Positions 3,617 through 10,062 of a stretch of 10,062 nucleotides of DNA are shown in pieces. The DNA lies in IMG/VR virus record IMGVR_UViG_2579779107_000005, one strand, 5' to 3'. Every line of letters begins with the position of its first letter. Position 1 is the first letter of the stretch. Position numbers and translations under genes: made by a program. The notes under the pieces are model-generated. The model saw nothing but the letters and a program-made list of their open reading frames with translations. It ran no database searches and was not told where the DNA came from. Origin of the DNA: a virus (lineage: Duplodnaviria; Heunggongvirae; Uroviricota; Caudoviricetes).

Positions 3617-4078
3617 TCAGGAAACCCTCAGAGACTCGAGAACCTCGCGTCGGCGCACGTCCTCGGAGACGTAGTAGCTGTCCCGATAGCTGGCAAAGTC
3701 GCTGCCATCAGTGGTGTAGGGCACGGGCCGCAGTGCAACGCCATGGGGCTTCTTCCAGTTCTCGCCGGCGCGCTTCTGCTCGCGCTCTTCGAAGATGTCG
3801 ACAGCCTTCTGCGCCTCGCACTCGTCCTCTTCGACGCGGAAGCGAATGCGGGGGTCGTCGGAGTGGCAGATGTAGACGGGCAGGCCGCAGCGGCAGCGCT
3901 CAGCCTCGAGGGACTGCACCGCCTCCACCAGGAGGTAGTCCCACTCGGACCATGCGGCCTTGTGCGGGTGCTTCTTGCGGAAGAGGAACGCCGTGGGCGC
4001 CACGTTCACCGACGCAGCAGCCTTGATGACTGAGACGTACCTGGCCCCGGCGCCGGAGGCCAGGTAGCCGGCTAGAAA
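3617..4078 (-). CDS. Tail assembly chaperone, C-terminal (gpT-like) part reached by -1 frameshift; predicted fusion about 408 aa
   Basis: The -1 frame is open from the slippery site (FLAGYLASGAGARYVSVIKAAASVNVAPTAFLF...) into ORF 3617..4009, which has a CRCGLPVYICH...C motif. Lies between the chaperone and tape measure genes, as in lambda G-T-H. Confidence 0.85.
   Translation of the reverse strand, partial: FLAGYLASGAGARYVSVIKAAASVNVAPTAFLFRKKHPHKAAWSEWDYLLVEAVQSLEAERCRCGLPVYICHSDDPRIRFRVEEDECEAQKAVDIFEEREQKRAGENWKKPHGVALRPVPYTTDGSDFASYRDSYYVSEDVRRREVLESLRVS
3686..3697. promoter_or_regulatory. Putative operator (one mismatch) ATAGCTGGCAAA, about 120 nt upstream of the tape measure start
   Basis: Minus-strand reading TTTGCCAGCTAT is 11/12 identical to the site at 8824-8835; encoded with TTT and TAT codons. 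Confidence 0.4.
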
Positions 4079-4081
4079 TCC
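4038..4081 (-). other. Programmed -1 ribosomal frameshift signal: heptamer G GAU UUC (4081-4075), 8-nt spacer, stem-loop (4066-4038)
   Basis: The heptamer immediately precedes the UAG of the chaperone gene. The downstream stem UACCUGGCC/GGCCAGGUA is a perfect 9 bp, extendable by G-U and C-G pairs. The -1 frame joins the next ORF. Confidence 0.85.
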
Positions 4082-4842
4082 GCCTGTGCGATCGCCGACT
4101 CGGAGACGGCGTTGCGGAACTGCAGGTCGTTCACCGTGGTGAACAGCTTGCTCATCTGGCTGATGGGGAGGAAGTCACGCAGCGCTTCCAGCTCCTCGAC
4201 CGAGAGCTTGACGCCCTCCTCGCCGGTGGAGTTGTCGCGGTAGCGCACCACCTGGTCATAGGCCAGCTCGAGCAGGTTGCGCTCCTGGAACGCCTCCTCC
4301 TGATCCGCGGGGATGCCCTTCTCGGTGATGCCGAGCGCCTTGCGCGCGCGCCGGGATGCGCCGCGAGCGATGGCGAAGGGGAGCGCTCGCAACTCGATCG
4401 AGAGGCTGTTGGACCGAACCTCGTCGCGAATCGCGGCGGCGGCTGCATCCAGCTCCGCGAGCTTCGCCTCCTGCGGCTTGATGAACTCGAGCAGCTCCTT
4501 GCGCTGACTGATCTGCTCCTCAACTTCCGCGATGTCGACCTCGAGGGCGGCGGCGTCGTCGCCCTCCGCCTTCTTGAGGTCGCGCTTGAGCTTGGCGCGG
4601 AGCTTTGTCAGCTCGTCGATTCCGGCAGCGTTGAGCTTGGCGCTCTCGATGGCGTTACGAAGGCGTGCGAGCGCCTGCTCAGCTACGGCCAGGCGCTCGC
4701 TGTTCACCTCGTCGTACCCGAGGTCGAGCTTCGCCGTTCTCATGTCGCGGTTCTTGATCCGGTCGATGAGCGAGAAGCCGGACTTGGCCTCCTCGACGAT
4801 TTCGGTCACGTCGGCGATGTCGGTTTCCAGGGCGTCGGTCAC
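4072..4842 (-). CDS. Tail assembly chaperone (gpG-like), 256 aa, with a long coiled-coil-like segment
   Basis: GTG start with SD GGAGGAG; positioned between tail tube and tape measure genes; ends ...AQADF* at the slippery site. Confidence 0.85.
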   Translation of the reverse strand: MTDALETDIADVTEIVEEAKSGFSLIDRIKNRDMRTAKLDLGYDEVNSERLAVAEQALARLRNAIESAKLNAAGIDELTKLRAKLKRDLKKAEGDDAAALEVDIAEVEEQISQRKELLEFIKPQEAKLAELDAAAAAIRDEVRSNSLSIELRALPFAIARGASRRARKALGITEKGIPADQEEAFQERNLLELAYDQVVRYRDNSTGEEGVKLSVEELEALRDFLPISQMSKLFTTVNDLQFRNAVSESAIAQADF

Positions 4843-4887: not shown

Positions 4888-4916
4888 AGGTTAGCGCGAT
4901 TCGTTTAGCGAGCAAA
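4888..4916 (-). promoter_or_regulatory. Candidate promoter for the chaperone/tape measure genes (-10 TAACCT at 4893-4888; weak -35 TTTGCT at 17 nt) overlapped by an operator-like site at 4905-4916
   Basis: TANNNT hexamer just downstream of the terminator. TTAGCGAGCAAA (plus strand) is an exact match to TTWGCNNGCWAA and covers the putative -35. Confidence 0.5.
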
Positions 4917-4959: not shown

Positions 4960-5721
4960 TTAGGCCGTGACGGTGATCGCCGTCTCGTCCGACGGGAGGG
5001 CGCCGGGGAAGGAGGCGGTGATCTTCGCCTCGCCGATCTTGAGGCGCTCGACGATGCCGTGCTCGGTGACGGTGGCGATCGACGGGTCGCTCGTGCTCCA
5101 CTTCGCGCCGATGGTGACGATCTTGCCCTGGTAGACCGCCTTGAGCCGCGTGACCGACCCGACCTTCCCGCTCGCGTCGCCCGCGGCGACCGTGACGGCG
5201 ACCTTGACCGGCGCGGCGGGCGCGATGATGCCACGCACGCCCATGTCGGACTGCGGGAGCAGCGCGTCCGCCCACGAGTACGAGGTGTCGCCGCGGACGT
5301 CCTTCGGAGCGTCGGACAGCACGTGCCAGGCGTTGTACTCGTCGCCGGCAACGAGCGGCTTGGAGGCCGCCTCCACCGGGCGCGCGAGGAGGATGACGTC
5401 CGAGCCATACGGCTTGAGCATCGTCTCGGCGATGAAGTAGCTCGAGGCGGTGTCGTCGGGCTGGGCCTTGAAGCCGGAGAAGTTGCCTCCGAAGTCGCCG
5501 TTGCCGGCGCTCTTGGCGCCCGCGGCGTCCGCGAAGGAGCGGTCGTCGCTGGACTGGCTCGACTTGGTGTTGAAGTCGGTGCCGTCGAACTTCACCGCGT
5601 CGGTGATGTTCTTGAGCGTCGCCGCCTCGGTCTCGGTGATGGCCGTGACGTCGGCGACCGCGGAGGCCGGACCCACGAACCAGGCGTAGTGCTTGTTGGT
5701 GAGGATGCGCTTGTTGGTCAC
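4960..5721 (-). CDS. Major tail (tube) protein paralog B with C-terminal Ig-like (Big_2-type) domain, 253 aa
   Basis: GTG start with SD AAGGA. The N-terminal ~170 aa align by eye with the 5734..6318 protein (NITDAVK/NITEAVK; VAGDEYNAWHV/VAGQKYSAFYV). C-terminal WSTSDPSIATVTEHGIV...GEAKITA is an Ig-fold signature. Precedes the terminator and chaperones. Confidence 0.85.
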   Translation of the reverse strand: MTNKRILTNKHYAWFVGPASAVADVTAITETEAATLKNITDAVKFDGTDFNTKSSQSSDDRSFADAAGAKSAGNGDFGGNFSGFKAQPDDTASSYFIAETMLKPYGSDVILLARPVEAASKPLVAGDEYNAWHVLSDAPKDVRGDTSYSWADALLPQSDMGVRGIIAPAAPVKVAVTVAAGDASGKVGSVTRLKAVYQGKIVTIGAKWSTSDPSIATVTEHGIVERLKIGEAKITASFPGALPSDETAITVTA

Positions 5722-6527: not shown

Positions 6528-6540
6528 ACAGCTCAGTGTA
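6527..6540 (-). promoter_or_regulatory. Candidate leaderless promoter: -10 TACACT (6540-6535), 7 nt before the GTG at 6527
   Basis: TANNNT-N7-start geometry and no SD before the start codon. Confidence 0.5.
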
Positions 6541-6575
6541 AGGAAACTCCCAGCTTACTTCCAGAAACGGGGATT

Positions 6576-7016: not shown

Positions 7017-7465
7017 CCCTTGCTTCCCACCCATGCCTTTAGCTGGCTCTTGAACTCGCTCTTGGCTACCTCGGAGGCGTCAAGGAGTGCGTGGACGCCG
7101 GCCACTGGAACGACCTGCGAGCCGTTCTCCTGGACCTCGTAGTAGATGGGCGTGCCATCGTCGCCGATCCAGCCGAAGCGACCCTGCATTCGGTTCTCAT
7201 CGAGCTGGTACGAGTCGTGCTGGAAGTCGTCGCGGAAGTCACCAGTGACGATGCGACCGGGGTGGCCGCCGTTGTCGCGCGCGCGGCGGTCGCCGGTCGG
7301 CGTGGTGCTCATCTCGATCTTCTGGTGGGCGACGTCCTCGCCCTTCGTGAGGGACTCATCCATGGCGGCGGCGGCCACGGCGTTCGCCTCGTCGCGGAGG
7401 CCAAGGAGCTGCTGGCGGACCCCGGCGATGAATGCGGTGCCGACACCGGCAAGCGCGGTGCTCAC
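7013..7465 (-). CDS. HK97 gp10-like tail completion / neck protein, 150 aa
   Basis: GRIVTGDFRD and YYEVQENGS motifs resemble the gp10-family R.dTG..r and Y..y.E.GT motifs; GTGA overlap with the stopper gene; synteny. Confidence 0.7.
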   Translation of the reverse strand: MSTALAGVGTAFIAGVRQQLLGLRDEANAVAAAAMDESLTKGEDVAHQKIEMSTTPTGDRRARDNGGHPGRIVTGDFRDDFQHDSYQLDENRMQGRFGWIGDDGTPIYYEVQENGSQVVPVAGVHALLDASEVAKSEFKSQLKAWVGSKG

Positions 7466-7917
7466 GGCATGCTCCAGGGATCGAGCAGAGCGCCGTTGGT
7501 GCGACAGCGCACCTTGGTCAGCGCTGCGATCGACCCATTCTCGACGCCGAGGACCTGGAACCCGAAACGCGCGAGGGCGGGGTTGTCGCCACCGGGGAGC
7601 GCGCGGATGACCATGCCCTGCTGCAACACGGGGTCGCCGGGCTCAGGGATGAACTGGATGCGAAAGTCCACGATCCCCTGCAGCAGGCCCGCCTCGGTGA
7701 GGGCGGCAGCCTGGAGGGCCTTGAAGTAGGCGGGCCGGGGGCCGAGCACGAGCGTGGCTGCGCTCAGCCCCCCGGTGTCGGCATGAGGGTCGTAGTCGTC
7801 CGTCGGTGTCCTGGTGTTCGGGTCCAAGACGACGAGCTGGTCCTTGAGCATGCCTGCATCCAACAGCGCATCGCGAATCGCGCCGATGAAGTCGGTGGAG
7901 GCAGGGGCAAGGGCCAT
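7462..7917 (-). CDS. Head-to-tail stopper (head-closure) protein, DUF6093-like, 151 aa
   Basis: DYDPHADTG and C-terminal DNPALARFGFQVLGVENGSIAALTKVRC resemble actinophage stoppers; first gene of the stopper/gp10/terminator/tube series. Confidence 0.65.
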   Translation of the reverse strand: MALAPASTDFIGAIRDALLDAGMLKDQLVVLDPNTRTPTDDYDPHADTGGLSAATLVLGPRPAYFKALQAAALTEAGLLQGIVDFRIQFIPEPGDPVLQQGMVIRALPGGDNPALARFGFQVLGVENGSIAALTKVRCRTNGALLDPWSMP

Positions 7918-7945
7918 GCCTTCCAGGGTAGCGTTTGCTGGCTAA
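7917..7945 (-). promoter_or_regulatory. Candidate leaderless promoter (-10 TACCCT at 7930-7925, 7 nt before ATG 7917) with an operator-like site at 7934-7945
   Basis: Minus strand TTAGCCAGCAAA-CGC-TACCCT-GGAAGGC-ATG; exact match to TTWGCNNGCWAA 3 nt upstream of the -10. Confidence 0.55.
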
Positions 7946-8097
7946 ATTCCAGCAGGAATGTGCTGGTGGCAATACCAGCCGTTCGGCCACTCGTACGGCG
8001 TCGTCCACTTCTGGCGCGGGCATCGCTCGCCAGTCGCAGTTGTTCCGCAGCACTGGTGCTTCCAGATCGTCGACTCGGAGGGCCAGTCGTAAGTCAC
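7942..8097 (-). CDS. 51-aa putative zinc-finger protein (not in ORF track): MTYDWPSESTIWKHQCCGTTATGERCPRQKWTTPYEWPNGWYCHQHIPAGI
   Basis: GTGA overlap with the upstream stop, SD GAGGAG 5 nt upstream, fills the gap exactly; C-x3-T-x2-G-x2-C ... C-x2-H pattern. Confidence 0.75.
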   Translation of the reverse strand: MTYDWPSESTIWKHQCCGTTATGERCPRQKWTTPYEWPNGWYCHQHIPAGI

Positions 8098-8417
8098 GAG
8101 TGCTCCTCAAGGTAGCGGCGGCCGGCGTCGGTGATCTTGAATAGCGCCTGGTTCACCGAGTTGGAGCGGTGGTGAACAAGGCCGAGGCGTGACAGCTCCC
8201 AGGCGACACGCGCCCCCTTCATGGGCATGGTGCCGCCCATGGCTCCGGGATCGTTCGTGCCATGCTTGCGCGTGCGCTTCTCCCAGGCGGGGGAGTCGGG
8301 CCAGAGCTTCGCAGCGATCGCGCGCCCGGGGGTGCCGAGAGACCCCTCGTAATCGTCATCGTTGAGGTCTCGGATCGCGGCCAGAGCCCGGAGCTTGGCC
8401 GGAGTGAGGTCGGCCAT
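8094..8417 (-). CDS. 107-aa hypothetical protein, winged-helix-like (start revised to ATG 8417)
   Basis: TGATG overlap with the upstream stop. N-terminal LTPAKLRALAAI and C-terminal ELSRLGLV...FKITDAGRRYL resemble wHTH recognition-helix/wing motifs. Confidence 0.65.
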   Translation of the reverse strand: MADLTPAKLRALAAIRDLNDDDYEGSLGTPGRAIAAKLWPDSPAWEKRTRKHGTNDPGAMGGTMPMKGARVAWELSRLGLVHHRSNSVNQALFKITDAGRRYLEEHS

Positions 8418-8581
8418 CAGTAGCAGAACCACCCTTCGCAACTGCTGCAGCGAATACCGCCGCCATGTCCCGCGACGATCTTGTGCTTGCAGCCTACTGC
8501 CGCGCCCCACAGGATCGTTCGACCCTCTTCGCTTACCCAGGTTTCGCGTAGCGTTCCGGTCGGGCTGTTGGTCTTGCTCAT
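8417..8581 (-). CDS. 54-aa Cys-rich hypothetical protein (start revised to ATG 8581)
   Basis: ATGA overlap with the xis stop; MSKTNSPTG...GCKHKIVAGHGGGIRCSSCEGWFCY has C-x-H and CxxC, a possible zinc ribbon. Confidence 0.7.
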   Translation of the reverse strand: MSKTNSPTGTLRETWVSEEGRTILWGAAVGCKHKIVAGHGGGIRCSSCEGWFCY

Positions 8582-8772
8582 GCCGCCGCCTTCGTGTCCA
8601 TCTCCTGCTTCGCCAACCAGGCGTCGACGGTGGACTGGCGCCAGCGGAGTCGGTTGCCGATCTTGATGGGCTCGGGCAGGTCGTCGCCGTCGCTCCTCTT
8701 GCGGTAGATGGTCTGCTTTGCGAGCCCGAGTTGCTCGCCCAGGTCGTCGACGGTCAAGAGCCGGTCGCCCAT
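8578..8772 (-). CDS. xis: Excisionase / AlpA-family HTH protein (probable recombination directionality factor), 64 aa
   Basis: LLTVDDL..LGL..TIYR..G..LPEPIKIG.RLRWR..VDAWL signature; SD GGAGG; adjacent to the integrase. The RDF role is inferred. Confidence 0.85.
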   Translation of the reverse strand: MGDRLLTVDDLGEQLGLAKQTIYRKRSDGDDLPEPIKIGNRLRWRQSTVDAWLAKQEMDTKAAA

Positions 8773-8799
8773 GTTTCCTCCAGGTTCCAGTGGTTGCCA

Positions 8800-8844
8800 T
8801 TTAGCGAGCTAAAGCTATCTCATTTTGCCAGCTAATGCTATTCT
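8800..8844. promoter_or_regulatory. Divergent xis/int control region with two tandem operator-like sites (8801-8812, 8824-8835) and -10 candidates TATTCT (+, 8839-8844) and TAGCTT (-, 8817-8812)
   Basis: AT-rich 102-bp gap. Imperfect direct repeats TTTAGCGAGCTAAAGCTAT / TTTTGCCAGCTAATGCTAT, 23 bp apart, each containing TTWGCNNGCWAA. Confidence 0.7.
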
Positions 8845-8874
8845 TCTTCCTATTCATACCGAACAGGAGGTCTG

Positions 8875-10062
8875 GTGGCCCGGTCACGTACACCCGTCGG
8901 CGCGCACGGCGACATCAATCTCAAGCAGATCGCCCCGGGCAAATGGCGGGCGCGCACGCTCTACCGCTTCGAGGATGGCACCCGTCGTCAGGTCGAGCGC
9001 GCCGGCAGCACGAAGGGCAAGGCCCAGAACGCGCTCCTCGAGGCACTCACCACGATCGGCGTGCCGGACTCCCGCACGGGAAAGATGAAGGCGACCATGA
9101 CCGTTGCCGACCTGGCCGAGGTCTACCTTGAGACGAAGCGCAAGGAGAAGCTCGCGCCCAACAGCATCCGCACCTACACCCAGTGGGCACGCTCGAACAT
9201 CGTGCCGCAGCTCGGCGCTCTGCGCGCCACCGAGGTGCGCCCGATGGTCGTGCAAGAGTTCTGTGACCGGGTGACCGACGAGAACGGCGCCGGAACGGCC
9301 TACAACTGCCGGAAGGTGCTGCGAGGCATGTTCGCCCTTGCGCTTCTGAATGACGTCGTGAAGGTGAATCCGGTTGTCGGCGTGAAGGTGTTCGGAGTGG
9401 GTGACGTCGGCAAGGCGGCGAAGGCCCTTCCGCTCGATGGCGTCGACAGCTTCCTCGACGTCGTGCGCAACGACCCCGCGATGCGCTCCGCCGGCATCCC
9501 GGATATCTGGGAGTTCATGGCCTTCACGGGCTGTCGCATCGGCGAGGCGCTCGCGCTTCGGTGGTCCCACGTCGACTTCGAGGCGGGCGCCATCACGCTC
9601 GGTCCTTCCATCGCAGAGTACGAGGGGCCGGTGCGCATCTGGGAGCCCGCGAAGACGGACAAGTCCTTGCGCACCATCATCGTGCCAGCGCGGACGATGG
9701 CCCTGTTGCGGGGCATCAAGGAGCGGGTGCCGCATACCGACGAGGGCCTCGTCTTCCCGCACCCGACGGGCAAGATTTACCGGCCGACACGCCTCGAGCA
9801 AATCTGGGAGCGCAACCGGGAACGGCTCGGCTACCCCGAGTTCACCTCGCACGGCTTCCGAAAGACCGTCGCGACTATGCTGGATGCGGCGGGGCTCACC
9901 GCTCGAGAGATTGCGGAATACCTCGGACACAAGCGCCCCTCCTTCACCCAGGACGTCTACATGTCGCGCGAGGTGGGAAGCAACAAGGTGGCGAAGTTCT
10001 TCGACTCAAAGTTCGGGGAAAGTTCGGGATCGGAGGGGGAGCGGGATGCGAAATCCGCGTAA
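8875..10062 (+). CDS. int: Tyrosine integrase, 395 aa
   Basis: SD AGGAGG plus GTG. Catalytic motifs TGCRIGE (R), PAKT (K), SHGFRKT (HxxR), LGHK (H), TQDVY (Y). N-terminal arm-binding-like segment (GKWRAR...DGTRRQV). TAA at 10060-10062. Confidence 0.97.
   Translation: MARSRTPVGAHGDINLKQIAPGKWRARTLYRFEDGTRRQVERAGSTKGKAQNALLEALTTIGVPDSRTGKMKATMTVADLAEVYLETKRKEKLAPNSIRTYTQWARSNIVPQLGALRATEVRPMVVQEFCDRVTDENGAGTAYNCRKVLRGMFALALLNDVVKVNPVVGVKVFGVGDVGKAAKALPLDGVDSFLDVVRNDPAMRSAGIPDIWEFMAFTGCRIGEALALRWSHVDFEAGAITLGPSIAEYEGPVRIWEPAKTDKSLRTIIVPARTMALLRGIKERVPHTDEGLVFPHPTGKIYRPTRLEQIWERNRERLGYPEFTSHGFRKTVATMLDAAGLTAREIAEYLGHKRPSFTQDVYMSREVGSNKVAKFFDSKFGESSGSEGERDAKSA
10008..10029 (+). repeat. Tandem direct repeat AAAGTTCGGG x2 (11-bp period); candidate integrase arm-type sites
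   Basis: AAAGTTCGGGG AAAGTTCGGGA within the low-complexity 3' end of int. Function is inferred from the usual position of arm sites flanking attP. Confidence 0.55.

Follow-up and report, generated by a model that had tools for sequence, protein, structure and literature searches.

How can a series of phage tail genes begin directly behind an integrase gene and an excisionase gene (int and xis), with no terminase, portal or capsid gene in sight? This question is raised by a stretch of 10,062 nt from a tailed phage (Caudoviricetes; IMG/VR record IMGVR_UViG_2579779107_000005), hereafter called the window, which corresponds to C9:325508-335569 on the 638-kb contig C9. The window has a GC content of 62-74% (500-bp windows) and carries nearly all of its real genes on the minus strand; among the named genes, only int lies on the plus strand. 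Read along the minus strand, the order given in a preliminary description of this DNA is found directly: xis is followed by three coupled small open reading frames (ORFs), a 24-bp gap, a gene for a stopper-fold protein, neck genes, two tail tube paralogs, a chaperone gene and the tape measure gene (Table 1). Two explanations had been offered for this arrangement, namely that attP and int sit inside the structural region, in which case integration would separate head from tail genes, or that the element is headless. We conclude, with a probability of roughly 0.88, that the window is the attR end of one apparently complete temperate siphovirus prophage of 74,632 bp, whose integration module lies inside the neck genes and whose head and tail genes are split by the insertion.

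Boundaries and Gene Content of the Prophage

The attachment sites, whose definition the preliminary description had proposed as a check, are formed by a 17-bp direct repeat, CAGTTTCTCGGACTGAA, of which the genome contains only two copies (C9:260962 and C9:335594). The right copy is the attR core; it starts 25 nt past the int stop codon and occupies C9:335594-335610 (window-equivalent 10087-10103), which places the window in the attR-proximal 10 kb of the element. The prophage between the two repeat copies measures 74,632 bp. In seven congeneric genomes the corresponding site is empty: the left and right flanks are contiguous there and overlap by exactly the 17-bp core, and the 74,632 bp can therefore be regarded as a single insertion. 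A single tyrosine integrase is encoded within the element and a third att copy is absent. Bounded by a repeat, missing from the same site in relatives and carrying int beside att together with xis, the element has the features of a Campbell-type prophage.

The head genes sought by the preliminary description are located at the attL end, on the same strand as the tail genes. There, a TerS-like gene (a homologue of gp10 of the Clavibacter phage CMP1, see below) is followed by genes for TerL (phrog_2, 2.4e-20), the portal (phrog_10963, 1.6e-82), a maturation protease (phrog_15531, 2.3e-26), a 142-aa protein, an HK97-type capsid protein (PF25209, 1.6e-16) and, in last position, a second 142-aa protein that is weakly assigned as adaptor-like. 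The two structural halves are separated by replication and recombination genes on the opposite strand, by distal tail genes and by an ORF downstream of the tail genes, which is read as an endolysin from its matches to VanY and to two PG_binding_1 domains; no holin was identified in the element. Packaging, head, neck, tail and lysis gene sets are all found within the att bounds. The claimed lack of head genes consequently holds for the window but not for the element.

Several features were noted around the attachment sites. The attB site lies at the junction of two host genes and includes the stop codon of the first, which encodes an ABC-ATPase, and the start of the second. The stop codon of the upstream gene is retained in the att core, and the phage arm of attR (L003:1-70; window-equivalent 10078-10103) gives the downstream host gene a new GTG and a GGGGGAG ribosome-binding site. 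At the other end, 196 nt inside attL and between the attP core and the adaptor-like gene, the prophage carries a tRNA-Arg(CCT) gene with an encoded CCA (C9:261174-261248, plus strand; L019:1675-1749). The host has a tRNA-Arg(CCT) of its own on contig C18, and several differences from the phage copy are found in its D, anticodon and T arms. On the strand of int, and convergent to the adaptor-like gene, an ORF (C9:261268-261507, plus strand) encodes a 79-aa protein that has a hydrophobic N-terminus and weakly matches Rz-like spanins (E 0.0013). In the lysogen, this ORF is preceded by the host ABC-ATPase gene and the phage tRNA gene, and read-through from the host could lead to its expression.

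Separation of Head and Tail Genes by Integration

When attL is joined to attR, the resulting order is capsid, adaptor-like gene, a small reverse ORF, tRNA-Arg(CCT) (reverse), attP, int (reverse), xis, small genes, stopper and tail. In the circular phage genome, the integration module would thus lie exactly between the adaptor-like and stopper genes; it comprises the attP core, the tRNA-Arg and int genes, oriented against the late strand, and the late-strand gene xis. Campbell-type recombination at attP would open this circle midway through the virion-gene series. The TerS-like, TerL, portal, protease, capsid and adaptor-like genes are accordingly found at the attL end, and the stopper, neck, tube, tape measure, distal tail and endolysin genes at the attR end behind int and xis, 74 kb away, with both halves on the same strand.

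Two further lines of evidence agree with this order. In CMP1, which has no integrase, gp16 (adaptor-like) and gp17 (stopper-like) abut, whereas their homologues in the prophage are located at opposite ends; the break in synteny falls precisely at this boundary. In addition, a contig from JGI (L016) represents the unintegrated form, in which TerS, TerL, portal, protease, capsid and adaptor-like genes are followed by attP, int (reversed), xis and the stopper gene. Together with the full head module inside the att bounds, these observations fully support the first of the two explanations, an attP and int within the structural region.

The adjacency of the cassette and the stopper gene was surveyed among homologues of the stopper, which belongs to a rare family. 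A word-based search provided 10 close homologues and a profile search of 1.84 billion representatives provided 83. A scan of genome contigs with the stopper alignment yielded no relatives, the same scan of viral contigs yielded two distant matches only, one of them the cassette-free contig L020, and a scan of viral contigs with tube paralog 2 yielded nothing. All seven relatives with a readable context (the P0008 contig, L015, L016, L023/24, L025/26, L027 and L031), which stem from several assemblies, carry a recombinase gene directly upstream of the stopper gene. Four of them (L015, L023/24, L027 and the P0008 contig) begin at or near int and continue with xis, stopper, neck genes, two tube genes, chaperone and tape measure. 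L031 is an integrated copy in which host genes precede int. In L025/26, the recombinase is a large serine enzyme, whose gene is on the late strand and 50 nt ahead of that for the stopper.

The structural proteins of these relatives are 38-79% identical to those of the prophage, and their integrases are 39% identical or undetectably similar; xis of L016 shares 37% identity with its counterpart. Differences extend to the specificity of attP. In L016, the attP core is the 3' 39 nt of a tRNA-Arg(CCT), situated at the same place as the tRNA gene of the prophage and matching the host tRNA of the genome studied here at 36 of 39 positions, vs. a protein-gene junction in the prophage. The slot is conserved and its content exchanged. 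In the distant IMG/VR relative L020, the adaptor-like and stopper homologues abut and no cassette is present.

A remnant of about 4 kb was found in Lacisediminihabitans changchengi (JAEPES010000004; L017:6432-10429), with host genes on both sides. It contains no more than a gene for a 318-aa protein, two small ORFs, a Phage_capsid_4 gene and an adaptor-like gene whose product is 57% identical to that of the prophage, and it appears to be what decay has left of the head end of a prophage organized in the same way.

Identity of the Stopper

The first gene behind the cassette encodes a 151-aa protein that has no match in Pfam or PHROG, and it is labeled a stopper because of its fold, not because of sequence families. 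An AlphaFold2 (AF2) model built with 10 homologues (predicted local distance difference test, pLDDT, 68.7) matched neck and stopper proteins in VIA with Z scores of 7-9.5. These include proteins of phage Chi (8vhx_F, Z 9.3), the stopper of the gene transfer agent RcGTA (6tba_3A, Z 8.7), SPP1 gp16 (7z4w_1, Z 8.0), the stopper of phage 812 (8qgr, Z 7.5) and lambda FII (8k37_M, Z 7.1). Nearly all of the top ~25 structural matches are neck or stopper chains and cover ~100 of the 151 residues; the E-values obtained with Foldseek are just ~5e-3. The position of the gene is consistent with the fold. In CMP1 and L020 the stopper homologue comes after the adaptor-like gene, and in the prophage it precedes the genes for an HK97 gp10-like protein and the tail terminator. 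Neck genes follow the stopper homologue directly in L020, and in CMP1 they are separated from it by gp18 and the gp19-23 insertion. Fold and gene position thus bear out the name used in the preliminary description, and the label is a reasonable one that can be held with moderate confidence.

Putative Operators and Promoters and a Proposed Model of Expression

The split between head and tail genes may be tolerated because the structural genes appear to be transcribed from many short-range promoters. In this model, expression would not rely on one long late transcript, as promoter-like elements are dispersed over the genome and end 6-7 nt before the start codons. Two types of such elements were recognized, one of which includes a palindrome of the form TTAGC-NN-GCWAA. 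All eight exact copies of TTAGCNNGCWAA in the genome lie within the prophage; with up to one mismatch, 25 copies are found inside the prophage vs. 9 outside, and 19 of the 25 are intergenic. The window contains six distinct sites (two separating int from xis and one within the 24-bp gap among them), compared with 0.27 expected, in line with the shared operators of the preliminary description. The positions of the palindrome are conserved in L015 and L016. Copies also occur inside coding sequence, namely an exact one in the tape measure gene (1402-1413) and one with a single mismatch in the chaperone extension (3686-3697).

The element in front of the stopper gene consists of the palindrome (consensus TTAGCCAGCWAA), 2-4 nt, a TAnCCT hexamer, 6-7 nt and an ATG. 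It is found before the stopper gene in all six relatives for which DNA is available (L015, L016, L023/24, L025/26, L027) and is not present before gp17 of the lytic CMP1. Its palindrome is centered ~21 nt upstream of the putative start. An operator at this place would lie in the -35/spacer region, a repressor-type position from which a bound repressor would block RNA polymerase. The conserved element agrees with the earlier claim that the tail module has a promoter of its own, and it probably restarts the expression of structural genes after the cassette. Transcription would then resume from an operator-controlled promoter upstream of the stopper gene, and the split would cost nothing.

The second type, termed late-type here, is composed of two tandem repeats of ~11 nt, a TAnnnT hexamer, 6-7 nt and the start codon, as read in upstream regions. 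Elements of this type stand in front of four genes of the prophage (TerS-like, protease, adaptor-like and gp26-like) and of the homologous genes in L015 and L016. The copy before the gp26-like gene was recognized solely by reading upstream regions; as a plain pattern, the repeat TCCCAG(G)AAAC does not occur above chance in the window. Scans of the junction for sigma-70 and intrinsic-terminator consensus sequences found nothing, and the promoters of this phage do not fit that consensus. One terminator-like hairpin is located after the capsid gene.

Alternative Explanations

The second explanation of the preliminary description was a headless integrative element, either an F-type tailocin-like unit or a satellite that gives its own stopper and tail to helper heads. 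Within the window alone, int and xis indeed lead straight into stopper and tail genes, with no head genes. The element as a whole, however, contains TerS-like, TerL, portal, protease, capsid and adaptor-like genes inside its att bounds, and the preliminary description had itself named a full head module in the same att-bounded element as the finding that would refute headlessness. These head genes are syntenic with those of CMP1 and of L016, where they run directly into int, xis and the stopper gene, and the element has just two att cores and one tyrosine integrase. The headless readings are thereby refuted. A composite of adjacent, unrelated head-bearing and tail-bearing elements, or a misassembly, might be suspected from the large size of 74.6 kb and from the blocks of opposite orientation. 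Such an origin is very difficult to reconcile with the clean single insertion relative to the seven congeners, with its 17-bp target overlap and lack of a third att copy, and with the recurrence of the int-xis-stopper junction in independent assemblies from different samples. Moreover, one contig (L016) joins the head and tail sides through attP, and the nearest sequenced relative is the same phage, CMP1, for head and tail proteins alike.

It could also be argued that a cassette was recently inserted into the neck genes of a single phage, leaving debris and no evolved architecture. The three small genes that separate xis from the stopper gene occur in this prophage only, and the stopper family was found in none of the genomes searched among 400 others sampled from the order, as might be expected of a one-off event. 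Yet the slot is filled in every temperate relative found, with stoppers that are 44-89% identical and a more distant one in L031 that was found by profile only; at 44-89% protein identity, the cassette-bearing contigs are not near-identical copies of each other. Different recombinases, which diverge strongly and one of which is a serine recombinase, occupy the slot, and the cassette is immediately followed by a conserved promoter-like element. A one-off insertion is consequently quite improbable, and the conservation of both the adjacency and the element among the relatives agrees with the view, already put forward for this junction, that it is functional and not debris.

Some points weigh against the interpretation as a prophage split within its neck genes. 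The roles of promoters and operators are deduced solely from the geometry of the sequence and its conservation. The quality of the stopper model is moderate, and its Z scores of 8-9.5 are near the grey zone stated for VIA. The adaptor label is based on position, on homology to CMP1 gp16 and on a feature lead in the Atlas to PhiTE adaptor clusters; the AF2 model of this protein is too poor to use (pLDDT 43.9), and a profile search against PDB sequences gave no match. Finally, the relatives are metagenomic contigs, and one of them, the 55-kb P0008 contig, was read as gene calls, without DNA.

Features of the Window

The features of the window are compiled in Table 1. The integrase gene is divergent from xis, from which it is separated by an intergenic region of 102 bp, and xis is the first late-strand gene past the integrase. 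Among the three small ORFs that follow, the Cys-rich ORF of 54 aa has neither a family match nor a counterpart in the relatives, the start of the 107-aa winged-helix ORF was taken from reading the sequence, and the Cys/His-rich ORF of 51 aa is weakly similar (E 0.003) to a 77-aa ORF at the same position in L023.

Table 1. Genes and putative regulatory sites in the window (positions in the window; descending numbers denote the minus strand).
Feature	Position	Strand	Evidence and remarks
Tyrosine integrase (int), 395 aa	8875..10062	+	Phage_integrase PF00589 2.5e-18; phrog_1 2e-57
Two palindromic operator-like sites	8801-8812, 8824-8835		int/xis intergenic region; motif also in the int-xis gap of L015
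xis, excisionase-type helix-turn-helix (HTH) protein, 64 aa	8772..8578	-	HTH_17 1.4e-9; Phage_AlpA 1.5e-4; phrog_66 excisionase 1.2e-9
Cys-rich ORF, 54 aa	8581..8417	-	ATG overlaps xis stop (ATGA), translationally coupled
ORF with weak EarA-like winged helix, 107 aa	8417..8094	-	PF07381 3.2e-4, below family cut-off; TGATG coupling
Cys/His-rich ORF, 51 aa	8097..7942	-	GTGA coupling; stop codon within operator palindrome
Stopper promoter-like element	7945..7925	-	palindrome TTAGCCAGCAAA 7945..7934, 3 nt, TACCCT 7930..7925, 7 nt, ATG 7917
Stopper-fold head-completion protein, 151 aa	7917..7462	-	CMP1 gp17 homologue (blastp 35% identity, 5e-10); fold matches
HK97 gp10-like neck protein, 150 aa	7465..7013	-	CMP1 gp24 homologue (blastp 6e-11); phrog_16765 5e-11; Atlas HK97-gp10_like, TM 0.73
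Tail terminator (SPP1 gp17 / lambda U type), 152 aa	7034..6576	-	CMP1 gp25 homologue (blastp 9e-5); Atlas Tail_completion_gp17, Phage_tail_U and tail-terminator clusters, TM 0.7-0.8
Putative late-type promoter of 69-aa gene	6568..6535	-	tandem GTTTCTGGAAG / TAAGCTGGGAG repeats, TACACT, 7 nt, GTG
ORF with GTG start, 69 aa	6527..6318	-	CMP1 gp26 homologue (blastp 9e-5)
Tail tube paralog 1, 194 aa	6318..5734	-	PF25595 (Phage_TTP_16) 3.5e-15; phrog_2491 1.6e-16; CMP1 gp27 7e-19
Tail tube paralog 2, 253 aa, C-terminal Ig-like domain	5721..4960	-	PF25595 (Phage_TTP_16) 3.7e-27; CMP1 gp28 5e-37
Palindromic operator-like site	4905-4916		between tube gene 2 and chaperone gene; same position occupied in L015
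Tail assembly chaperone and downstream extension ORF	4842..4072, 4009..3617	-	phrog_15960 4e-4, phrog_20192 9e-10; CMP1 gp30
Tape measure, N-terminal 1188 of 1870 residues	3565..1	-	runs past window start; CMP1 gp31, 40% identity over 583 aa, 1e-92

Further downstream, a conserved ORF of 67-88 aa is found at the place of the gp26-like gene in most relatives with a readable tail side (P0008 contig, L015, L023, L025/26, L030), and none was called at that place in L031. The Ig-like domain of tube paralog 2 is weakly matched by Big_2, with a value of 4.3e-4 that falls short of the family cut-off. In L015, the 130-aa chaperone-extension ORF between chaperone and tape measure is replaced by a 462-aa ORF (L015:5497-6885) with a faint LAGLIDADG_3 match, which may be a homing-endonuclease or intein-type insertion.

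Implications

The prophage stands for a sparsely sampled lineage of actinobacterial phages in which the integration module has an unusual, conserved location among the neck genes. This placement creates a trap for annotation, as an integrase followed by tail genes without head genes resembles a tailocin or a satellite but here belongs to an entire phage, of which it forms one end. Such elements will be split or mislabeled by prophage finders and completeness scores that presuppose neighboring head and tail genes. The placement also illustrates genome plasticity, in that the tightly ordered neck series of a siphovirus can accommodate an integration module in one fixed slot. Among the relatives, the recombinase of this slot has been swapped, with divergent tyrosine integrases, a serine recombinase and different attP specificities, and behind it a dedicated promoter appears to restart expression. 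In addition, the layout offers a testable route from a prophage to domesticated elements that retain only the tail or only the head.

A more far-reaching and rather doubtful proposal is that the boundary between adaptor and stopper is a dedicated, exchangeable slot for integration modules in this lineage. If so, the regulator of int and xis, and not the late activator, would also govern the stopper, gp10-like and terminator genes through the conserved palindrome-controlled element, and the control of excision would be coupled to head completion. One deletion from either end of such a prophage would leave a self-contained unit, either int-xis-tail-lysis, i.e., a proto-tailocin, or packaging-head, a form of which the capsid and adaptor remnant of L017 may represent a case.

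Comparison with Known Systems

The lytic siphovirus CMP1 (Cimpunavirus; NC_013698) is the nearest sequenced relative for the portal, the tube paralogs, the tape measure and the neck genes. It provides the best match for tube paralog 2 and, with 36% identity, the best match to the portal among actinobacterial phages, behind a cyanophage at 40%. The order TerS-like, TerL, portal, protease, decoration protein, capsid, gp16, gp17, and further on gp24-26, two tube genes, chaperone and tape measure is shared between the two phages; gp10-13, gp15, gp24-28 and gp30-33 match the prophage in order, and gp14, gp18 and gp29 have no syntenic blastp match in it. The rightward structural arm of CMP1 faces a leftward replication arm. 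Two genes from the slot, CMP1 has a 7-kb insertion of its own between gp18 and gp24 (L006 14336-21399), which comprises gp19-23 and encodes a minor tail protein, a phosphodiesterase and an SGNH hydrolase. The neck region of the lineage seems to be generally permissive to insertions.

In canonical temperate siphoviruses, the prophage map is a circular permutation of the phage map. Prophages of the lambda, L5 and phiC31 type share with the element described here Campbell integration by a tyrosine integrase beside attP, a small HTH excisionase and an attR arm that restores a start codon and ribosome-binding site to the interrupted host gene. In these phages, however, attP and int lie outside the virion-gene series, and head and tail genes stay adjacent in the prophage. 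The likeness to F-type tailocins and to capsid-forming phage-inducible chromosomal islands (PICIs) is superficial and confined to the 10 kb of the window, where an integrase is followed by half a virion gene set; unlike them, the element encodes both halves as well as packaging genes, an endolysin-domain ORF and replication genes. When it was considered as an F-type tailocin or tail-only element, which would be devoid of capsid, portal and terminase genes, all three were found, and it differs from a small, helper-dependent PICI-like satellite by its 74.6 kb with virion, replication and lysis genes. The palindromic sites resemble the stoperators of Cluster A phages in layout only, being short, numerous, confined to the phage and mostly intergenic. 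Stoperators are asymmetric, are found in one orientation and are bound by the immunity repressor, whereas the site in the prophage is a palindrome.

In the limited set of full texts searched, no description of an integration cassette between head and tail genes was found, which is no proof of novelty. A related arrangement exists in mycobacteriophage Giles (NC_009993), whose genome is ordered as structural genes, integration cassette and lysis genes (PMC5705681). According to its annotation, int on the opposite strand is followed by xis on the late strand, as in the prophage, and the cassette is located inside the rightward late arm, where integration separates late genes. In Giles, however, the cassette comes after the minor tail genes and cuts off the lysis genes together with one annotated tail protein (gp36), and head and tail genes stay together, whereas the cut in the prophage falls between the adaptor-like and stopper genes. 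Giles is thus the nearest described precedent for an integration cassette inside the late arm.

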